Of a DNA stretch of 64,000 bases, positions 47,445-56,908 are shown one piece after another. Source of the DNA: Escherichia phage APCEc01. Every line of letters starts with the position of its first letter. The stretch's first letter is position 1. The DNA lies in sequence record NC_029091.1. One strand, 5' to 3'. Position numbers and translations under genes: made by a program. Below the pieces are notes generated by a model. That model made no database searches. It saw nothing but the letters and a program-made list of their open reading frames with translations, and was not told the DNA's origin.

Positions 47445-47909
47445 ATGAAATCATACGCTGAATTTTTGACTGAACAATCTAGTTCAGATGTAAAAGCCGC
47501 TGCGATTGCAGCAATTCAAGCAGGTAAATATTCTTACAAAGACGCCTCTGATGAAGAACGTTTCCGTTTTATTAGAGATTTTAAAGCCGAAGGTTTTACT
47601 AATGCTAATACTGTTAGCCGAGTTTTTAAAAGCCTAGCTGCATCAGGTGAATTGTTCCAGAAAGCTACAGGTAAAGCACCTGCGCCAAAAACAGACCCTA
47701 AAGCAGCTCAAGAAAAAAATATCGCCAAAGGAATTATTTCTAAGTATGAAGCAATTCTTAAAGAGCTTTTAGTAATCAAAACAGAAGGCCAGAAACTGGC
47801 ACGAGCACATAGCTTCAAAGATAATCCTCACGCTCATAGCCTTGAGTATGTTGAAGATATCCAAAAACTTATTAAAGACCGTATCTGGTCTGCTAAACAA
47901 ATTAAATAA
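47445..47909 (+). CDS. internal-protein-like protein with capsid targeting sequence MKSYAEFLTE (154 aa)
   Basis: N-terminal CTS motif, lysine/alanine-rich. Confidence 0.55.
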   Translation: MKSYAEFLTEQSSSDVKAAAIAAIQAGKYSYKDASDEERFRFIRDFKAEGFTNANTVSRVFKSLAASGELFQKATGKAPAPKTDPKAAQEKNIAKGIISKYEAILKELLVIKTEGQKLARAHSFKDNPHAHSLEYVEDIQKLIKDRIWSAKQIK

Positions 47910-49034: not shown

Positions 49035-49069
49035 TTTACAAACTCTTGAGAGCAGAGTATAATGCTCTC
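49035..49069 (+). promoter_or_regulatory. early promoter (TTTACA, 17 nt, TATAAT) with -10 inside inverted repeat GAGAGCA/TGCTCTC
   Basis: consensus hexamers and 7-bp inverted repeat flanking the -10. Confidence 0.55.
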
Positions 49070-49104: not shown

Positions 49105-49698
49105 ATGAACACACTGAAGAAACTTGTTGAATTCATCCGCACTAAACTTGGTACTGCTATGGCTAAAAATCTGACTGTCGAAGAACAGTATAACGCAGCT
49201 GCAGATAAGTTGATTACCCAAATCAAAGAACTAAAAACGGCTTCTGTTAAATCTATTAATGAAGAAAAACGTATTCGCGAACTTGTTAATGAAAAGAACA
49301 AACAAGCCGCTTCTAAGGAACGTGAAATTCGTAAGCTCTTGGCTGAAGGACAAGATGTTACCATGCATGCTAAGCTTGGTCTTCTGTATCGTCGAACTGC
49401 CGAACAACTTAATACAAAGGCTGACGGGTATGCCGCTATGCGAATTGAAATTGCTCGTAAGGTGGTTGAACTTGATGATGCTCGTCAGAATCTGGCAATC
49501 AAACTCGAATACATTCGTGAAACTCGAGCAGCCAATGCCCTTGGTATCTCTACGGCTGATGATGTAATTGAAATCGCTGCACTGACTAAGGTTGATATCG
49601 AAGACACTCTGACTCGTGTTGAAACGTTCAATGGCACTCCAGCCGGTGTCGAAACCACTTCTGCTGATGTACAAGAATATATTAACTCTTTGAAATAA
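49105..49698 (+). CDS. hypothetical coiled-coil protein (197 aa)
   Basis: ORF, predicted mostly helical; the minus-strand ORF 49231-49749 is a shadow. Confidence 0.5.
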
Positions 49699-49705
49699 AA
49701 TAATA

Positions 49706-49730
49706 CGGAGGACTCCGGTCCTCCTTTTGG
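49706..49730 (+). terminator. rho-independent terminator
   Basis: GGAGGACtccgGTCCTCC followed by TTTTGG. Confidence 0.6.
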
Positions 49731-49747
49731 ATAATAAAGGAGTTAAC

Positions 49748-50350
49748 ATGCGAAACCAAAATAATGATATTGACTCAATGTTCGAAGAGTTCCGAGATAA
49801 GGTAAATCCACCTACGTCTTTAGTTGATTCATTACGATATGTTGCAACCGGACGTAAATGGTACTGGTCGTCTTCTTATGAGACTACTGAGAAAACGGCT
49901 AGCCATAGCAGAAAATCTTTATTAGCCCCAGGTATTATGATTCATGATATCGGAGCTATTGCTAAACTAGTTGCAGACCATGATATTAGATTCACCGATT
50001 TCGTTGCTCCTACATGGTCTGTTTGTTGTTTAAACACTGAATGGGAATATATCAGCGAACGCTCTAAAGATTATTATGGTTTTAGAGATAAGCTTCTGAG
50101 GTCTAACATGTTTTATATTGATACAGAAGTTCTGGTCAATAATAAAAAATACTACTTCACTTTAATCGTCGATTCTGAAACTATGTATGAAGGCGGGCCT
50201 TTGCTTAAGAGAGTTGATGCTTTAAGTGCTATTGATGCGCTTTATGAAACTATGGTTGTTAGTCCTAATTTCACTAACAATTTAATCCTTGAGCAATTTA
50301 TTATGGAATGTAGAGAATATGTCAAAGCCAACCCTGTACATGCCAATTAA
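49748..50350 (+). CDS. hypothetical protein ending in F-I-M-E-C-R motif (200 aa)
   Basis: ATG with SD AAGGAG; C-terminal ...LEQFIMECREY. Confidence 0.5.
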   Translation: MRNQNNDIDSMFEEFRDKVNPPTSLVDSLRYVATGRKWYWSSSYETTEKTASHSRKSLLAPGIMIHDIGAIAKLVADHDIRFTDFVAPTWSVCCLNTEWEYISERSKDYYGFRDKLLRSNMFYIDTEVLVNNKKYYFTLIVDSETMYEGGPLLKRVDALSAIDALYETMVVSPNFTNNLILEQFIMECREYVKANPVHAN

Positions 50351-50714
50351 GCCCTGGGCATACGAATACAAGCGTAAATTAATCCCAAATGAAGTACTAT
50401 TTGGCCCTATTTTAGCTTTAGCATTTTTAATCTTTATGATTATAGGAGCTGTTTTAGATTCCAATAAAGTTATATCGTCTGATGCAGCATTTTCATTAAT
50501 GTTCGTCGCACCACTTATTGTACCGTTTTTATTAATGCCTATTAATTGGGTAGGATATTGGCACCAAGGCCGTCATCACAGAGCTCGAGTAAGAGAATGG
50601 AAAGTTCAGTGCGCAAAAGCCCAAGCTCAGTATGATGAAGCTGTTAAAAAGTATGAATATGAAGAAGCTATGGAATTCGTTAAGGAAATAAGATGCAAAA
50701 GCCTCAACTCTTAA
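50319..50714 (+). CDS. membrane protein, F-x-K-E-x-R-C C-terminal family (131 aa)
   Basis: two predicted TM helices; ends ...AMEFVKEIRCK; start uncertain (50289, 50319 or 50340). Confidence 0.45.
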   Translation: MSKPTLYMPIKPWAYEYKRKLIPNEVLFGPILALAFLIFMIIGAVLDSNKVISSDAAFSLMFVAPLIVPFLLMPINWVGYWHQGRHHRARVREWKVQCAKAQAQYDEAVKKYEYEEAMEFVKEIRCKSLNS

Positions 50715-51052
50715 CCGTATGGCCTTCTCTTGGTGAGAACATTCTAATTTTTATTATGAGTATTGGCATGGGATTTGCCTTTGGATTAGTTGGATTTCTT
50801 ATTGACGGCGTTGTGTTAGGATTTATAGGGAACACTGGTGGATTCACAGACCAATGGCAGGACTTACGGTATACCCAAGCCTTTGCATCCATCGCATCAT
50901 TTTGTACTGTAGTCTATTTTTACTACGATTTTATAAACCACAACAAGAAAAATAAAAAGGTTTACGCTTCTCAAATGATTAGTTATAATGAACTCCTAGC
51001 TAGACGTGAAAATGAAACAATCGAAAACTTTATTAAGGAATGTAGAAAATGA
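50693..51052 (+). CDS. membrane protein, NFIKECR C-terminal family (119 aa)
   Basis: 2-3 predicted TM helices; ends ...ETIENFIKECRK. Confidence 0.5.
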   Translation: MQKPQLLTVWPSLGENILIFIMSIGMGFAFGLVGFLIDGVVLGFIGNTGGFTDQWQDLRYTQAFASIASFCTVVYFYYDFINHNKKNKKVYASQMISYNELLARRENETIENFIKECRK

Positions 51053-51354
51053 GTAAGATTATTGAAATTAAAGTACCAGAGTTTAATGATGCCAAATCCG
51101 CTTCAGATGCAATTTATAAACTTCTGAATCAAGCTGAACGTATCGAAGAAGAAGCAACAAAGATCGCAGACCAATATGCCGTATCATTTTCTGTAGGTGA
51201 TTATGGTAGCGGTCGTACTTATTATCCTAAGGGTGAAATCGTATCCCAGTGGATGAAAGATGAAATTGAAAATAATGGCGGCGATGTTAAGCGTGAAGGT
51301 AATGGATACGTTATTACTGAAGGTGCTTGGGTTTCGTCTTCTGCGTTGTGCTAA
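51049..51354 (+). CDS. hypothetical protein, GWVSSS-x-x-C C-terminal family, member 1 (101 aa)
   Basis: ends ...EGAWVSSSALC; ATGA overlap with upstream gene. Confidence 0.5.
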   Translation: MSKIIEIKVPEFNDAKSASDAIYKLLNQAERIEEEATKIADQYAVSFSVGDYGSGRTYYPKGEIVSQWMKDEIENNGGDVKREGNGYVITEGAWVSSSALC

Positions 51355-51363
51355 GGAATCATT

Positions 51364-51636
51364 ATGTCTAAAGAACAAACCGAACTGGCTGAAGCTGTAG
51401 CAAAAATCTATGCAGCTATTGAGGCTGCCAAAGAAATTGCTGATAAACAAAACACAACATTCAACTTGTACCCAGCTTATGGTATGGGTGGAACCTATCA
51501 TTCACCCGGACATCTTAAAGCCGATCTTGAACGTTGTACAAAAAACGGCTATGCTGAATGGGCTGACGTTTACCAATACGACTACAACCTGAGCCTCGAA
51601 ACTGGTGGTTGGGTCGCATCTTCTCACACTTGCTAA
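51364..51636 (+). CDS. hypothetical protein, GWV-x-SS-x-x-C family, member 2 (90 aa)
   Basis: ends ...GGWVASSHTC; SD AAGGAA. Confidence 0.5.
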   Translation: MSKEQTELAEAVAKIYAAIEAAKEIADKQNTTFNLYPAYGMGGTYHSPGHLKADLERCTKNGYAEWADVYQYDYNLSLETGGWVASSHTC

Positions 51637-51645
51637 GGAAACAAT

Positions 51646-51843
51646 ATGTCTCGTGAATTAGATTGTGCTGTACGTACGGCAGTAGCTGCTCTGGAAAACC
51701 TGTTCCAAATTGCAACAGAAGAACGCGAAGAAGTTACATTATGGATTGAAGATAACGCAGGTCTGAATCTCCAGGACGCGATCTCATTATCCCACAATAG
51801 TATCACTGTTCAAGGCTGGGTATCATCTAGTTATTCTTGCTAA
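51646..51843 (+). CDS. hypothetical protein, GWVSSS-x-x-C family, member 3 (65 aa)
   Basis: ends ...QGWVSSSYSC; SD AAGGAA. Confidence 0.5.
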   Translation: MSRELDCAVRTAVAALENLFQIATEEREEVTLWIEDNAGLNLQDAISLSHNSITVQGWVSSSYSC

Positions 51844-51847
51844 AACA

Positions 51848-51896
51848 GTTTACAACAAGATAGGGCTATGTTATAGTAGTCCTATCAAAACAAATG
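51848..51896 (+). promoter_or_regulatory. early promoter in stem-loop (PeSL-like cassette, copy B)
   Basis: GTTTAC, 17 nt, TTATAG; gatagggctatgttatagtagtcctatcaaaacaaatg. Confidence 0.6.
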
Positions 51897-51905
51897 GAGT
51901 CCACA

Positions 51906-52145
51906 ATGATTTATTACGAAAGTATCGGAACCAAAGTGGTTAGTAAAACCATTACTCGTGAAAAGTTTGCAAAGATATTCGATATGCGTTATAAAAAATC
52001 TGAACACAAAGGCATCCGATTCGAAGATGCGCACTGTACAATTTGCCCTTATAATGAAGACATAAACGGTACAATCGTTCCATTGGTAGAGGCTTCACAT
52101 GATGACCTCTGGGATGAATATAATATCGCATGTCGTGAAATTTAA
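51906..52145 (+). CDS. hypothetical protein (79 aa)
   Basis: start at ATG after SD GGAG (the track start ATG is part of the SD). Confidence 0.45.
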   Translation: MIYYESIGTKVVSKTITREKFAKIFDMRYKKSEHKGIRFEDAHCTICPYNEDINGTIVPLVEASHDDLWDEYNIACREI

Positions 52146-52173
52146 GTTAATGAATTAATCCGAGGAAAATATT

Positions 52174-53130
52174 ATGATGTTAGTTATTGGTTCTCGTGCA
52201 CTTCACTATCACGGTCTTATTGATTCTAGCGCTATTAAAAATAGTGATTGGGACTTTATTGCGGACCAAGGTTCTTGGAATGCATTCAAAAATCAAATGA
52301 TGGGTGTATATGTTCACCAAGATAACCCTGATGTCCAAGTTTTCAAATGCTTCCATAATGGACGCGAAACTCATTTTGAAGCATATATTGTTCCGGCAAT
52401 CACTAATGTCCGTGAATTAGTCGGTGAACTCACTCCTGAAGATTTCACGTCTTCTTATGACCTTTTAAAATACGCCAAGAAAAATTTGACTAAAGACCGT
52501 TTGAACGGGTTTTACTGGGCAACTCCTGAGATATGTCTTGCAATTAAGATGTCTCATCGTTTCAAGAAAAATAATCCATTCTTTTTAAAGACTATGAACC
52601 ATATTCAGTATCTTCGTGGTAAAGGTGTTACACTGAACGATGAACTTACTGAAATTATGCTGAAACGCCAGAAAGAAACCTTGAATTATGCTCACCCAGT
52701 TCTTGACACTTCTAAAAGTGCGTTCTTTAAAGATGACATCTATACATATGACCATGATACTATTCATGAAGCCATTGCACTAACAGACCGTCCAGCGTAT
52801 ACATTTTATATGAAAGATGGTTCTGAAGTCATGACCTCACGCGAGAAGTTCGAATCATTACCAGAAATGGTCAAATTGGCCGGCGTATACGAAGAATCAT
52901 GTGTACTAGCGTTAGAACGTTCTCAGATTCCTAATAACTTTGAAATCCATCCACGTGATAGTTTTATGATGGCCCTTGAAAAGGTCTGTACATCAATCAC
53001 ATCAGGATGGTTCCGTGAGTTCGCTTGGGAAAATTATAGCAAAGTAGTAAGTATGTACCAAAGCTTAGGACACGACGATTACGTCAAGCGTTTCAAACAA
53101 AACTTTCATATGGTAAAACCTTTCAAATAA
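52174..53130 (+). CDS. hypothetical protein (318 aa), possible nucleotidyltransferase-like N-terminus
   Basis: largest ORF of the accessory region; N-terminal IGSRAL...SDWDF weakly resembles the G-S...D-x-D signature. Confidence 0.5.
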   Translation: MMLVIGSRALHYHGLIDSSAIKNSDWDFIADQGSWNAFKNQMMGVYVHQDNPDVQVFKCFHNGRETHFEAYIVPAITNVRELVGELTPEDFTSSYDLLKYAKKNLTKDRLNGFYWATPEICLAIKMSHRFKKNNPFFLKTMNHIQYLRGKGVTLNDELTEIMLKRQKETLNYAHPVLDTSKSAFFKDDIYTYDHDTIHEAIALTDRPAYTFYMKDGSEVMTSREKFESLPEMVKLAGVYEESCVLALERSQIPNNFEIHPRDSFMMALEKVCTSITSGWFREFAWENYSKVVSMYQSLGHDDYVKRFKQNFHMVKPFK

Positions 53131-53142
53131 TTTCACAAAACA

Positions 53143-53172
53143 GTTTACAAGGTCTGTAGTTGTTGATACTAT
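53143..53172 (+). promoter_or_regulatory. early promoter (GTTTAC, 18 nt, TACTAT); upstream 26 bp identical to 44665-44690
   Basis: shared aaataatttcacaaaacagtttaca. Confidence 0.55.
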
Positions 53173-53210
53173 AGACCTATCAAAACAAATGAGTGAATGG
53201 AGATATAAAA

Positions 53211-53411
53211 ATGACTACTTTGAATAAACGTTTCGGTAAAGCTAAACCTGGTTGTGCAGCAGAACGTCGTTATGTTTTCGCTCAGTTAGAAGATGTAGAG
53301 TATCAGATTAATCAAGTTCACATTACTGGCATCGAGCCTATGTGTGGCCTTGAAGCTCTTCGTGAAGTTCGTGATGGGTATCGTCGTGACATCGAAGAAA
53401 TGTCAAAATAA
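53211..53411 (+). CDS. hypothetical small protein (66 aa)
   Basis: ATG after SD GGAG; MTTLNKRFGKAKPGCAAERRY... Confidence 0.45.
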   Translation: MTTLNKRFGKAKPGCAAERRYVFAQLEDVEYQINQVHITGIEPMCGLEALREVRDGYRRDIEEMSK

Positions 53412-53412
53412 G

Positions 53413-53455
53413 TGTACAAACTGATAGGACTATGTTATAGTAGTCCTATTAAAAC
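53413..53455 (+). promoter_or_regulatory. early promoter in stem-loop (PeSL-like cassette, copy C)
   Basis: gataggactatgttatagtagtcctattaaaac, nearly identical to copies A and B. Confidence 0.55.
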
Positions 53456-53469
53456 ATGAGGAGAATATT

Positions 53470-53775
53470 ATGAAATTAGGCGAAACCAACCGAATTGGTC
53501 TTTTAACAATATTTGTATCACTTTTTTACGCAGCTCTTTCTGTTGCAGTATTACAAAAGGCTTACAGTATGGATGGTGTTCCTGGTTTTGTATTCTTATC
53601 GCCGTTTTTGCTATTCGTTGGAGCATTGTTATTATATGCCACGACTAGTTTCGACCATAACGTCTGGGTCAATTATAAATGTAAATTGTCTGAAGAAGAA
53701 CACGCAGAAGCTCGTAAAAAAGCTATTGAATCTACCAATCTAGAAAATTTCATTAAAGAATGTCGAGGAAAATAA
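53470..53775 (+). CDS. membrane protein, NFIKECR C-terminal family (101 aa)
   Basis: two predicted TM helices; ends ...NLENFIKECRGK. Confidence 0.5.
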   Translation: MKLGETNRIGLLTIFVSLFYAALSVAVLQKAYSMDGVPGFVFLSPFLLFVGALLLYATTSFDHNVWVNYKCKLSEEEHAEARKKAIESTNLENFIKECRGK

Positions 53776-53776
53776 T

Positions 53777-54463
53777 ATGAATAGTTCTAAAGTGTTTAAT
53801 AGTCAAGCTCGTGCAGTAGGTGGTTTTGCTCATGCGATTAAAAATGACCAGATTAAAAACGAGCCTATGTTCTTTAATTGCGATTTGAATTTTGCTTTTG
53901 ATAACGGCGGTCCAATTACTCGTAGCTTTATCCAAAATCTCCCTGACGATTGGAAAGACTCGGATGTAGTATTTGATTCACGAGTCCATATGCTGATGCC
54001 TGGTTGGTATCCTGCTATTCCTGGTTATCACCATGATGACGTACCACGCCCGGATATTCCGGTTGGTCAACATTTTATTACTGCAGGACAACCTGACTAT
54101 GACAATCCTCGCTATTTGTCTGAACATATTCTTGGTCTTGTTAACGCTGATGTGTGTCCTACTCATTTTGCAACAGGAACTGCAGAGTTCAGTCAGATTC
54201 CTGATGGCGAACTTATCTATCGCCAGTGGCACAAAGAAGTCCTCGAAAAAATCGAAAAAGGCGAACTAGAGAAATGGGAAGCTCCAGATCGTACTCTTCT
54301 TCAGTTTGATTGGCAAACATGGCACACTGGTTCTCGTGCAATTAGTAACGGATGGCGTTGGTTCGGACGTGTATCTCGTAATACAGACCGAGTTAAAAAG
54401 ATTACCAATGAAATTCGTGTCAATGCCCAAGTTTATCTGGAATTCCCTATGGAAGGATGGTAA
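53777..54463 (+). CDS. hypothetical protein (228 aa), His/Asp-rich, possible metal-binding fold
   Basis: ORF with SD GAGGAAA; contains YHHDD and WHTGSR segments. Confidence 0.5.
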   Translation: MNSSKVFNSQARAVGGFAHAIKNDQIKNEPMFFNCDLNFAFDNGGPITRSFIQNLPDDWKDSDVVFDSRVHMLMPGWYPAIPGYHHDDVPRPDIPVGQHFITAGQPDYDNPRYLSEHILGLVNADVCPTHFATGTAEFSQIPDGELIYRQWHKEVLEKIEKGELEKWEAPDRTLLQFDWQTWHTGSRAISNGWRWFGRVSRNTDRVKKITNEIRVNAQVYLEFPMEGW

Positions 54464-54954
54464 TGATTAACAAAACATATTGGTCTAATATAGACGATGG
54501 CAACGAAGGTATTTCATACTATTCAGTAGATTGGACAGGATGTCCATCCTACTTAGTGAAACATATTTGCCAAGAATTTAAAATCGACCAGCCAGCAGGT
54601 ATTATCGTGAACAGATACATTAATGGATATCAACCTATCGATGAAGTAATACGAACAACTCAAGCTGAGCTTGAAAAGTTTTTCAATAAGTGCCAATGGA
54701 TAACAGGATGGATTATATTTGTACCGTCGGTATGGTTTTTTAGTACTAAGGTGAGTTCTTTCGGTTTTGTTGATATTATTGCTATCTTATTAGCATCTGC
54801 TATCGTAAGTATAATTGGCGGTATAATTGGTGGAGGTACTGTAGGCATCATTATTAATCTTGTTAAAAGTAGTTTACAAGAACGTAAAGACAAGATAAAG
54901 GCCAAGAATAATGAAGTTGAACGTTTTATTACCGAATGCAGGAATTTGAGATGA
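54457..54954 (+). CDS. membrane protein, F-I-T-E-C-R C-terminal family (165 aa)
   Basis: C-terminal half hydrophobic (two TM helices, GxxxG-rich); ends ...VERFITECRNLR. Confidence 0.5.
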   Translation: MVMINKTYWSNIDDGNEGISYYSVDWTGCPSYLVKHICQEFKIDQPAGIIVNRYINGYQPIDEVIRTTQAELEKFFNKCQWITGWIIFVPSVWFFSTKVSSFGFVDIIAILLASAIVSIIGGIIGGGTVGIIINLVKSSLQERKDKIKAKNNEVERFITECRNLR

Positions 54955-55187
54955 GTATAGCAATTTACATTAAATCAGAATCATGTGATAGTTATCTGTA
55001 CACATATGATAAAGATGTGTCAGAAGAAAAAATCAAAGACGACCTTAATATGGACCTTGATATGTTCTGTCCTATTGCAGATTACAAACTTGCGGTCTCT
55101 AATAGTGAAAGTCCATCTAAAGAAACGCGCATTGAAGAATTTATGTCCGAATTAATGGCCAAATCATGGGACCGAGATGATGAGTAA
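54951..55187 (+). CDS. hypothetical acidic protein (78 aa)
   Basis: ATGA overlap with upstream gene, SD AGGAA. Confidence 0.45.
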   Translation: MSIAIYIKSESCDSYLYTYDKDVSEEKIKDDLNMDLDMFCPIADYKLAVSNSESPSKETRIEEFMSELMAKSWDRDDE

Positions 55188-55635
55188 GAAAAATAAAGTG
55201 AAAGAACTATCAGCCGGTATTATTTTCCTTACCGAAGATAAAGAATTATTCATGGGGCGTGTAACTGGTTCTCGTCCTAAAGGTGCATTAGCTCATCGGT
55301 GGGATATTCCTAAAGGCCGTGTCGAACCTGGCGAATCTCCTATTGAAGCCGCTATTCGTGAATGCGAAGAAGAAACTGGGTTTACACAATATGACCCTGC
55401 CTTCCTGAAAGACCTAGGTGAACATCATTACTCAGACAATAAGAATATTCATCTGTTCCTATATACCATCCCTGTAGAGCACGAGCAATTCAGAAACAGT
55501 GTTTGTAATTCCTATCATACATTCCCAGACGGACGACAGATTCCTGAATTTGATGCATTCGCTTTAATTAAACCTTCTCAATGGGAATATGTAATGGGTA
55601 AATCATTATATAAGGTGCTCACTACACTCCTATAA
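55177..55635 (+). CDS. nudE: Nudix hydrolase NudE
   Basis: 152 aa; Nudix box GRVEPGESPIEAAIRECEEETGF; immediately upstream of e as T4 e.1. Confidence 0.8.
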   Translation: MMSKKNKVKELSAGIIFLTEDKELFMGRVTGSRPKGALAHRWDIPKGRVEPGESPIEAAIRECEEETGFTQYDPAFLKDLGEHHYSDNKNIHLFLYTIPVEHEQFRNSVCNSYHTFPDGRQIPEFDAFALIKPSQWEYVMGKSLYKVLTTLL

Positions 55636-55642
55636 GTAATAA

Positions 55643-55668
55643 ATACCTCCTATAAACGTGGGAGGTAT
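55643..55668 (+). promoter_or_regulatory. stem-loop sequestering the lysozyme RBS, with late-promoter-like TATAAACG in the loop
   Basis: 8-bp inverted repeat ATACCTCC/GGAGGTAT; 3' arm contains SD GGAGG two nt before ATG. Confidence 0.55.
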
Positions 55669-55669
55669 T

Positions 55670-56158
55670 ATGAATATATTTGAAATGCTTCGTAATGACG
55701 AAGGTCTTAGACTGACTTTATACAAAGACACTGAAGGCTTTTGGACGATTGGCATAGGCCATTTAGTAACAAAGAACCCGTCTTTAGCCGTAGCTAAAGC
55801 TGAACTTGACAGAATGATCGGTCGTAAATGCAACGGTACAATTACCCTTGATGAGGCTGAAAAGCTATTTAATGAAGACGTTGATAAAGCCGTCCGCGGA
55901 ATCTTGGGTAATGCTAAACTTAAACCGGTATATGATTCTTTAGACGCAGTTCGTCGGTGTGCATTGGTCAATATGGTCTTCCAAATGGGTGTAGCAGGAG
56001 TCGCCGGTTTTACTAATTCTCTTCGTATGCTTCAACAGAAACGTTGGGATGAAGCGGCAGTAAATCTAGCCCAATCTAAATGGTATCGTCAGACACCTAA
56101 TCGCGCGAAACGCGTAATCTCAACATTTAAAACAGGAACTTGGAAAGCGTATATATGA
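55670..56158 (+). CDS. e: endolysin (T4 lysozyme)
   Basis: start at [15 protein letters not shown]...; catalytic-site context [12 protein letters not shown]; matches T4 lysozyme as recalled; track ORF starts 4 codons upstream. Confidence 0.92.
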
Positions 56159-56437: not shown

Positions 56438-56489
56438 GTTTACTTCCTCCAAGGGTTTTGATACTATACATTCATCAACTACTTGGAGG
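56438..56489 (+). promoter_or_regulatory. early promoter (GTTTAC...TACTAT) inside 8-bp inverted repeat CCTCCAAG/CTTGGAGG containing the SD
   Basis: promoter hexamers and inverted repeat read directly. Confidence 0.5.
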
Positions 56490-56494
56490 AAATT

Positions 56495-56908
56495 ATGACT
56501 CGTATCAATTTAACACTTGTTTCTGAACTGTCCGACCAACATCTTATGGCTGAGTATCGTGAATTACCACGCGTATTTGGTGCAGTCCGTAAACATGTTC
56601 AAAACGGTAAACGTGTAAAGGATTTTAAAATCTCTCCAACATTTATCTTAGGCACAGGTCACGTAACATTCTTTTACGACAAACTCGAATTTTTACGTTT
56701 ACGTCAAATCGAGCTAATCGCTGAATGCTTGAAACGTGGTTTCAAAATCAAGGACACGACTGTCCAGGATATTTCCGACATTCCTGTAGAATTTCGTAAT
56801 AATTACGTCCCGTCCGAAGCGTCCATTGCGATAAGTCAAGCACGCTTAGATGAAAAAATTGCTCAACGTCCGACTTGGTACAAATACTATGGTAAATCAA
56901 TTTACTAA
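56495..56908 (+). CDS. denV: endonuclease V (pyrimidine dimer DNA glycosylase / AP lyase)
   Basis: 137 aa from [35 protein letters not shown]...; near identical to T4 DenV as recalled. Confidence 0.92.

Follow-up and report, generated by a model that had tools for sequence, protein, structure and literature searches.

Several otherwise unrelated early proteins of T4-like phages end in the same short peptide, which is under purifying selection at the protein level and whose coding DNA contains the junctions of gene gain and loss in the two events examined. We describe this tail from a 64-kb window of the genome of Escherichia phage APCEc01 (NC_029091.1; the window is the whole stretch of DNA that was analysed), which is part of a Mosigvirus (RB69-like, T4-type) genome. 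An earlier note, made from the letters of this DNA, had listed five open reading frames (ORFs) with a related C-terminal motif, and all five are present at the coordinates given there, with the C-termini that it quoted. The first, the homologue of T4 e.5 (49748..50350, + strand, as are all five), encodes a soluble protein of 200 residues, with FIMECR at 50297-50314 followed by EYVKANPVHAN, which overlaps the start of the e.4 homologue (50319..50714). The latter encodes a putative inner-membrane protein with two transmembrane segments; it carries the variant FVKEIR (50676-50693), and its final 22 nucleotides overlap the e.3 homologue (50693..51052), a membrane protein with FIKECR at 51029-51046 and a stop codon that overlaps the next ATG (ATGA). 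Further downstream lie a Mosigvirus-specific protein of 101 residues with two transmembrane segments, which we call M4 (53470..53775; FIKECR at 53749-53766), and a full-length e.2 homologue (54457..54954), composed of an N-terminal soluble domain, two hydrophobic segments and the tail, with FITECR at 54925-54942.

The recurrence of the motif is non-random. Six-frame translation of the window yields five copies of the pattern F[IVLM]xE[CI]R, against a mean of 0.37 and a maximum of three in 200 first-order Markov shuffles, and four of the strict form F[IV]xECR, against an expected 0.045. All five copies lie on the + strand, inside real ORFs and 1-11 residues before the stop codon, with the consensus (L/I/V)-E-x-F-I-x-E-C-R. 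No C-terminal copy was seen in about 97 kb of the near-identical Shigella phage JK42 outside the window (loci L021 and L022), where the relaxed pattern [FW][IVL]xxC[RK] gave three internal matches, more than 100 residues from any C-terminus, one of them in a non-coding frame. EFVKEIRCK of the e.4 homologue, which had been counted among the carriers, is such a tail in its FVKEIR part, but its Cys is off the motif position: that position holds I, S or V in e.4 proteins (FVKEIR, FVKESR, FIKEVR), and the Cys lies two residues past it, in a TGC codon whose TG belongs to the overlapping e.3 start codon. The e.4 proteins of Dhaka- and Gapriverviruses, ending FIKEVRNGTA, are without that Cys. A sixth candidate carrier, the ORF at 51906-52145 that ends NIACREI, was rejected because its orthologues end YCYEI or YVAEI.

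Beyond the window, the motif can be generalised to h-x-x-[FW]-[IV]-x-x-C-[RK], with h for a hydrophobic residue at the third position ahead of F. In this form it closes, or nearly closes, the proteins of at least eight families, which are all encoded in the early-gene block between the tRNA genes and nudE. Its carriers come from no fewer than seven T4-like genera and were found in Tequatro-, Mosig-, Dhaka-, Gapriver-, Kanagawa- and Winklervirus as well as in a Klebsiella T4-like phage and Serratia phage Muldoon; they include soluble proteins of 92-116 residues and an extra membrane protein, 'e2b'. T4 itself keeps the motif with other residues in e.5 (KFVKECR; LLLEKFVKECREYVKA), e.4 (KFVKESR; EIMKFVKESRCKSQS) and e.3 (EFVIDCR; SMKEFVIDCRKIK). 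Dhaka- and Gapriverviruses have LNSFIEECRK in e.2, LETFIKECKS in e.3, LNRFITECREYAKE in the protein at the e.5 position and KLFLEYCRS at the end of a soluble protein of 109-116 residues. The corresponding tails are DFVDQCRANIK, LFIKNVRRK, SFIQMCRGNQNVS, KFIKGCRNGRN and DFVKGCRNGHN in Kanagawavirus, EFVKMCRTKH, YFIKECR, DFIKGCRK and DFIRGIRS in Winklervirus, and EFIKHCREAVNG, RFIKYCRGKHVS, NWIKGCRK, NWVKGCRK and AFLKEMRK in the Klebsiella phage, while that of Muldoon is EFIKYCKDKY. The Muldoon carrier, a 98-residue protein with two transmembrane segments next to nudE (L024 8251-8547; ...DEFIKYCKDKY), is annotated 'putative holin or antiholin', a label based only on its transmembrane content and its closeness to the endolysin. 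No such tail was seen beside nudE in a Slopekvirus or in a Pseudotevenvirus, and none in the non-syntenic locus of Aeromonas phage 25 or a Tegunavirus locus.

That the peptide, and not its DNA or RNA, is the object of selection is evident from codon usage. The e.3 tail (AAC TTT ATT AAG GAA TGT AGA) and the M4 tail (AAT TTC ATT AAA GAA TGT CGA) encode identical residues and differ at four positions, all synonymous, as had been argued for these two genes in favour of protein-level selection. Among 43 distinct DNA instances of the motif, Phe is encoded by TTT 37 times and by TTC six times, the residue after it by ATT, ATC, GTT, GTG, GTA or TTA, Cys by TGT 17 times and by TGC 16 times, and Arg by AGA (12), AGG (8), CGA (6), CGT (13) or CGC (1). 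Variation at the F and I/V positions is synonymous or conservative only, and the switching of Arg between AGR and CGN together with the even use of the two Cys codons points to selection on amino acids; a sequence selected as RNA or DNA would not give such a pattern.

A common tail on unlike proteins

Four of the five ORFs belong to the orthologous groups of T4 e.5, e.4, e.3 and e.2, both by full-length similarity and by conserved position. Against their T4 counterparts, BLASTP gave 47% identity (E 7e-64) for e.5, 54% (E 3e-53) for e.4 and 36% (E 5e-22) for e.3, and the three proteins match phrog_2607 (E 6e-95), phrog_2604 and phrog_2330, respectively. The e.2 homologue matches phrog_2203 (E 8e-56), has an RB69 counterpart (P0007) named e.2, and aligns to full-length Tequatrovirus e.2 with E 1e-12 and to the truncated T4 e.2 with E 1e-8. 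M4 matches phrog_9798 (E 9e-68) and was seen only in Mosigvirus-type loci among those examined. The gene order e.6 - e.5 - e.4 - e.3 ... e.2 - nudE - e, on a single strand, is the same in the window and in T4; the window differs in having M4 as a fifth carrier and in its full-length e.2. In the T4 reference, e.2 is annotated with 103 residues and seemingly lacks the motif. Compared with other Tequatroviruses, however, T4 e.2 (NC_000866, record 67472-67960) has a 1-nucleotide deletion and a 1-nucleotide insertion, 78 nucleotides apart, which lead to a premature stop; e.2 of the other Tequatroviruses has 162 residues and ends NNFITECRKLK, and the same tail is found in the original frame in T4 past the annotated stop. 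The T4 annotation thus appears to be truncated; the cause would be a sequencing error of long ago or a mutation that the laboratory strain truly has.

Apart from the tail, the families have little in common. BLASTP between families aligns the last 9-20 residues and nothing more. In profile-profile comparison with hhalign, based on small family alignments, pairs reach 50-95% probability over 10-20 tail columns; once the tails were removed, no cross-family pair among e.2, e.3, e.4, M4, the 92-residue soluble family and e.5 reached 15%, although these alignments are shallow enough for old homology among membrane proteins to go undetected. Within families, the motif is the part that lasts. The e.5-position proteins of different genera are soluble and look like distant homologues of one another (probability 89-94%); an alignment of 23 of them, about 18% identical, has M1, L29, N96, F184, C188, R189 and E190 as its invariant columns. 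Seven e.2 sequences at genus level (22-35% identity) share D14, I19, D25, K146, I158, C161 and R162. Since F184, C188 and R189 of e.5 and I158, C161 and R162 of e.2 fall inside the motif, it is the best-conserved part of both families; in e.3 the invariant columns include E106, N107, E108, F113, C117, R118 and K119. The motif thus sits on unlike bodies, whose sequences have drifted apart until hardly any likeness is left, and it has the character of a module.

The earlier note had spoken of a paralogous family and had proposed to align the C-termini and run profile searches. A HMMER profile of the five tails, searched exhaustively against 1.84 billion protein representatives, retrieved five matches at E <= 0.001, all of them members of the family itself (relatives of e.3, e.4, M4 or e.2). 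Paralogy is in part retained. M4 weakly matches the e.2 family phrog_2203 (E 1.2e-4) from residue 7 to 99, over 87-93 residues, e.2 aligns to e2b (e2b2) with 95% probability over 80 columns, e2b1 to e2b2 with 91% over 94 columns, and e.3 to e.4 with 62-75% over 43-54 columns, so that some of the membrane members may, to judge from these alignments, be old tandem duplicates. It does not extend to the whole set, given the lack of cross-family homology without the tails, the solubility of e.5 and the absence of the motif Cys from e.4, and a shared C-terminal module on several families is the better wording.

These weak links also allow a reading in which there is no common partner at all. The membrane proteins (the C-terminal half of e.2, e2b, e.3, e.4 and M4) would then be very old duplicates in which only the tail is still recognisable, serving the folding, topology or stability of each protein separately, and the soluble carriers would have acquired the tail by fusion. 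The adjacency of the genes and the documented gain and loss of cassettes at the repeats fit such a history, as do the long alignments just listed. However, the cross-family signal among the membrane families is gone once the tails are removed, in soluble families of quite another build, too, no part is better conserved than the motif, and one would not expect an end-cap with a purely structural function to retain these four residues on bodies so dissimilar. We therefore consider this explanation unlikely, if still one to be taken seriously.

Gain and loss of genes at the motif

The DNA of the tails has a history of its own. In a Tequatrovirus locus without e.2 (L011 9900-10100, compared with L009 9460-10040), the sequence follows the e.3 tail as far as GATTGCAGGAAA and then, from TGCAGGAAATTAAAATG, continues as the e.2 tail and nudE start of relatives that contain e.2. 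The junction lies inside TGCAGGAAA, the codons for C-R-K, and the resulting e.3 ends FVIDCRKLK directly ahead of nudE. This junction is unbroken in at least 30 records (the first 30 listed), including Yersinia phage PST and phage PP01; the total of e.2-less genomes cannot be read from such a count, as split matches may be merged in the search. The second event concerns e2b in Kanagawavirus, which phage ZX14 has between e.2 and nudE and phage IME523 lacks (L013 9400-9540 compared with L019 9100-9550), and here too the switch point is inside motif codons, within TTAAAGGATGCCGTAATGG, which encodes [IV]-K-G-C-R-N-G. In these cases the repeated tails have acted as crossover sites at which whole genes were gained or lost while a tail and the downstream start were kept. 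As neighbouring genes repeat the motif at their 3' ends, its DNA is a site of unequal recombination. The copies within one genome have not been homogenised, which means that recombination cannot be what maintains the motif.

Other rearrangements were seen in the same genes. In a related Mosigvirus contig (L005 6030-6060, corresponding to window 50710-50960) an internal deletion of about 240 nucleotides leaves only the first codons and the tail of e.3, and e.3 is accordingly dispensable in nature. A metagenomic protein of 60 residues (P0050) is a chimera in which an N-terminal fragment of e.3 and e.3 tail residues are joined to the e.4 tail (...RENETIEAVKKYEYEEAMEFVKEIRCKSLN), which suggests further rearrangement among these genes. 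A 66-residue ORF at 53211-53411 forms a cassette between the promoter-like sites TTTACA-N17-TACTAT (53144) and TGTACA-N17-TATAGT (53413), and the segment 53150-53411 is absent from L005 (8236-8242).

The last of these is an indel of a type known from other T4-like phages, in whose hyperplastic regions promoter-early stem-loop (PeSL) cassettes are shuffled as modules (PMC2839356, PMC4122927), with the early promoter consensus TTTACW-N17-TAYWAT (PMC4122927). The motif resembles PeSLs in being a short conserved repeat at gene boundaries with gain and loss junctions inside it. It differs from them in that PeSLs are intergenic, consist of a promoter and a stem-loop and are conserved as DNA, whereas the motif is coding, its conservation is that of a protein, with drift at synonymous positions, and it contains no promoter hexamers and no stem-loop; of the features of a PeSL, only the junctions inside the repeat were found. 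It could nevertheless be asked whether the function of the DNA is the primary one, the repeated 3'-end sequence being an in-frame recombination linker, a coding analogue of the PeSL cassettes, by which genes are inserted or excised without breaking translational coupling, with the peptide as a tolerated by-product. Two independent indels with junctions inside the motif, one of them present in many isolates, would fit this explanation, and so would the established PeSL-type shuffling in hyperplastic regions and the indel next door at 53150-53411. Homology at the DNA level would not be expected to leave same-genome copies that are not homogenised and that differ mostly at synonymous positions, including AGR/CGN switches for Arg, and the shared identity of about 9-20 nucleotides is a poor substrate for efficient homologous recombination. 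On balance we find it distinctly improbable that the DNA comes first.

The two functions need not be separate, and the motif might be a portable module with a dual purpose: at the protein level an address tag that would connect any newly gained early protein, whether soluble or membrane-bound, to a single hub at the inner membrane, and at the DNA level an in-frame recombination linker that includes the next start site. We regard this combination as equally doubtful. If it were true, cassettes could be swapped, duplicated or lost with tag and translational coupling kept, and the motif would be the coding counterpart of PeSL elements.

Tail topology and a proposed docking role

Four of the five proteins had been predicted to have two or more transmembrane helices, and hydropathy agrees: on the Kyte-Doolittle scale e.4 has peaks at residues 31-45 and 58-72, e.3 at 28-42 and 63-77 and M4 at 14-28 and 41-55, e.2 likewise has two, and e.5 has no peak resembling a transmembrane helix. 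In the four membrane proteins, the motif closes a tail of 28-51 residues after the second hydrophobic segment, with 8-11 Lys or Arg (11 in e.4). Segments rich in Lys and Arg lie on the cytoplasmic side of the membrane (the positive-inside rule), by which these tails are predicted to be cytoplasmic; the soluble carriers (e.5 and the 92-residue family) have no signal peptide. Counted from F as 0, the conserved non-polar positions (h at -3, F itself, I/V at +1 and C at +4) would fall on one face of an α-helix, and all eight tails analysed have a helical hydrophobic moment above the mean of their shuffles. The AlphaFold2 model of e.5, built from 23 sequences, has a mean predicted local distance difference test score (pLDDT) of 60 and a predicted TM-score of 0.58, with a helix at 179-194 whose pLDDT is below 50, and is too weak to place the tail helix relative to the rest of the protein; that of e.2, from a shallow alignment, is unusable (mean pLDDT 36). 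A Foldseek search of the PDB with the e.5 model found nothing better than E 0.12, with TM-scores below 0.25, and a profile search of the PDB returned spurious cullin matches only.

From these features we propose that the tail would form one to two turns of a modestly amphipathic helix and would serve as a shared docking tag, through which early proteins that are co-expressed, and in part translationally coupled, would meet at a single partner on the cytoplasmic side of the inner membrane; this partner could be the tail proteins themselves or one phage or host protein. The motif Cys would probably be a small core residue, since e.4-type tails have V, I, S or M in its place; a role as metal ligand is conceivable. 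That the motif is such a cytoplasmic docking peptide has, in our estimate, about an even chance of being correct.

Such an arrangement has a precedent in T4, where gp55, gp33 and gp43 dock on the gp45 sliding clamp by short C-terminal tails. By analogy, the motif may likewise be a short hydrophobic C-terminal peptide through which otherwise unrelated phage proteins reach one partner. The clamp-binding motif itself was rejected as an identity for the tail: gp55 and gp33 of JK42 end in SLDFLYEDDN and TLDFLL, of the form LDFL[YL], whereas the motif (h-x-x-F-I-x-x-C-R) is without [ST]-L-D-F-L-[YLF], has a conserved C-R and is carried mostly by membrane proteins. A superficial resemblance of E-F-I-x-E to the capsid-targeting sequence and gp21 cleavage site (MKTYQEFIAE, with cleavage after L/I-x-E) was likewise dismissed, as that signal is N-terminal and the motif C-terminal, the Glu position varies in the motif (D, Q, G, N, H, Y, M), and C and R, conserved here, have no role there. 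Sequences of the capsid-targeting type do occur nearby: ORFs starting at 47445, 56140, 57240 and 57580 (+) begin with MK[ST]Y-x-EF[IL]-x-E, a capsid-targeting N-terminus characteristic of the internal head proteins of T4, and flank the e cluster on both sides. The earlier note had also named superinfection exclusion and anti-defence as candidate roles, neither of which gained support here; scans of Pfam, NCBIfam and PADLOC placed none of the five proteins in a known superinfection-exclusion (Imm, Sp) or defence or anti-defence family, and JK42 has separate imm and sp genes elsewhere in its genome.

The invariance of Cys in e.5 and e.2, followed by an invariant basic residue, and the basic and modestly amphipathic nature of the tails could also reflect chemistry specific to Cys, with tails that cluster to bind a metal (for example Zn or an Fe-S centre between subunits) or whose Cys/Arg pair is a site of modification, or else a membrane-targeting amphipathic helix in the soluble members. 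We judge this very unlikely, considering that I, V, S or M stands at the Cys position in e.4-type tails, that each tail has one Cys, that the acidic residues of FIKECR or FIEECR suit a membrane-binding helix poorly, and that Pfam and NCBIfam contain no matching metal-binding family.

The motif also overlaps the start region of the next gene, as the earlier note had observed, the ATG mostly following 0-10 nucleotides after the Arg codon. This overlap is largely a trivial result of a C-terminal motif in a tightly packed genome. The Shine-Dalgarno sequence is supplied by different codons in different genes, namely as AAGGA or GAGGA through K-E or E-E when the ATG follows directly, and as AGGA or GAGGA through R-N or R-G when it is 8-10 nucleotides away. 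In Dhakavirus e.5 the motif lies about 20 nucleotides upstream of the e.4 start, the Shine-Dalgarno sequence AAAGAGG comes after it, and FITECREY is intact. The x-E positions are therefore probably co-constrained by the ribosome-binding site, and F, I/V, C and R are not. That the similarity as a whole is imposed by the ribosome-binding region downstream, which the earlier note had allowed for and which the position of every motif within about 30 nucleotides of the next ATG and its use as a Shine-Dalgarno sequence might suggest, is largely refuted and in our view extremely improbable, because that sequence shifts from codon to codon, F, I/V, C and R lie outside it and vary synonymously, the Dhakavirus motif persists away from it, and any C-terminal motif would overlap the next start in so compact a genome.

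Returning to the docking proposal, several observations weigh against it. In the exhaustive search with the tail profile, no host or foreign protein with a similar tail was found, leaving a mimicry model without support. Taken singly, only one of the eight tails has a significant hydrophobic moment, and with both AlphaFold models poor, the helix and its exposure rest mainly on the sequence pattern. The e.4-type tails lack the Cys, and part of the motif (the K-E, E-E and R-G/N codons that double as Shine-Dalgarno sequences) is jointly constrained by RNA. Finally, members are dispensable in nature, e.2 being absent from many Tequatroviruses and e.3 internally deleted in L005, which argues against an obligatory complex of all members and fits independent adaptors that share one target.

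Gene neighbourhood and significance

The five ORFs sit in a variable early-gene block that extends from the tRNA genes to nudE and e and corresponds to e.8 ... e.2 in the T4 annotation, an uncharacterised and non-essential early region of T4-type phages. Positions 49700-55200 are 99% identical to JK42, a Mosigvirus, and 97-99% identical to many others of this genus, and the downstream landmarks are nudE (55177-55635), the T4 lysozyme gene e (55658-56158) and denV (56483-56908). A stem-loop terminator on the + strand at 49707..49724 (GGAGGACTCCGGTCCTCC, then a run of T), annotated as a terminator at the same site in phage ATK47, separates e.6 from e.5 and is the upstream edge of the translationally coupled run of e.5-e.4-e.3 and the following genes. 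A promoter scan placed a T4-early-type promoter-like site, TGTACA-N17-TATAGT with an upstream TG, at 53413..53441 (+), directly ahead of the block comprising M4, the ORF at 53777, e.2 and nudE; the homology of locus L004 to the window begins at 53406, and the indel boundary of L005 lies at 53412. Besides this site and the terminator, the scan returned promoter-like or terminator elements at 49035, 51849 and 53144, all of these elements lying away from the motif. An Rfam search of 46.5-56.5 kb gave two tRNAs and no known RNA element at the gene junctions.

As to gene starts, that of the e.2 homologue is probably at 54463 (MINKTYW, as in relatives) rather than at 54457, and for e.4 the T4 annotation has the same start (MSKPSLY) as the ORF at 50319. 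In several GenBank records the e.4 homologue bears the label 'sulfurtransferase' (for example JK42_00136, window 50340-50714) and starts at the second ATG, 50340, whereas an N-terminus conserved in T4 and Dhakavirus speaks for 50319. We rejected the label, which has no support in Pfam, NCBIfam or PHROGs and looks like a propagated annotation error. The annotation of phage ATK47 carries the notes 'similar to T4 e.3/e.4'. Scans of Pfam, NCBIfam and PADLOC gave nothing above threshold for the five proteins and two neighbours, the PHROGs matches are to families of 'unknown function' only, word-indexed homologue searches returned close T4-like relatives only, and the databases searched give no function for e.2, e.3, e.4 or e.5.

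Several neighbours are of interest in their own right. Directly after e.3 stands a second tandem family (51049-51354, 51364-51636 and 51646-51843, +), all three members of which end G-x-W-V-x-S-S-x-x-C and the stop codon (WVSSSALC, WVASSHTC, WVSSSYSC); two match phrog_899 and one phrog_4882, and related phages have two to five copies in the loci examined (e.g. GFWYSSSMSC, IWYPSSC), with Cys always last. The ORF at 52174-53130 (+) encodes 318 residues with the Pfam domains DUF7277 (E 1e-27) and DUF7275 (E 3e-79), and occurs in the same block in several genera and not in T4. The one at 53777-54463 (+), of 228 residues (phrog_1843), has no Pfam match and no T4 counterpart; it is 75-100% identical across Mosig-, Dhaka- and Gaprivervirus and Klebsiella and Aeromonas phages, with homologues of about 30% identity in Pectobacterium, Bacillus, Gordonia and Mycobacterium phages. 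The e.6 homologue (49105-49698, +; 197 residues, phrog_1203) is conserved far better than the proteins encoded around it and looks rich in coiled coil; its N-terminus has a motif-like L-x-E-F-I stretch, probably a compositional coincidence in an AT-rich genome.

In the databases and in the literature searched, the latter incompletely and with gene names that proved uninformative as search terms, we met with no account of the shared tail, of how widely it occurs or of its part in indel junctions. The genes themselves were already known as hypothetical, and the tail is a testable handle on an uncharacterised block of T4 rather than a new kind of system. Common to at least eight otherwise unrelated families, it is the first feature that links the proteins of this block functionally, and if a common partner exists, a role could be assigned to a whole set of hypothetical proteins at once. 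Gene gain and loss bounded by the motif, in turn, is a way in which translationally coupled strings of genes can be remodelled without intergenic elements.

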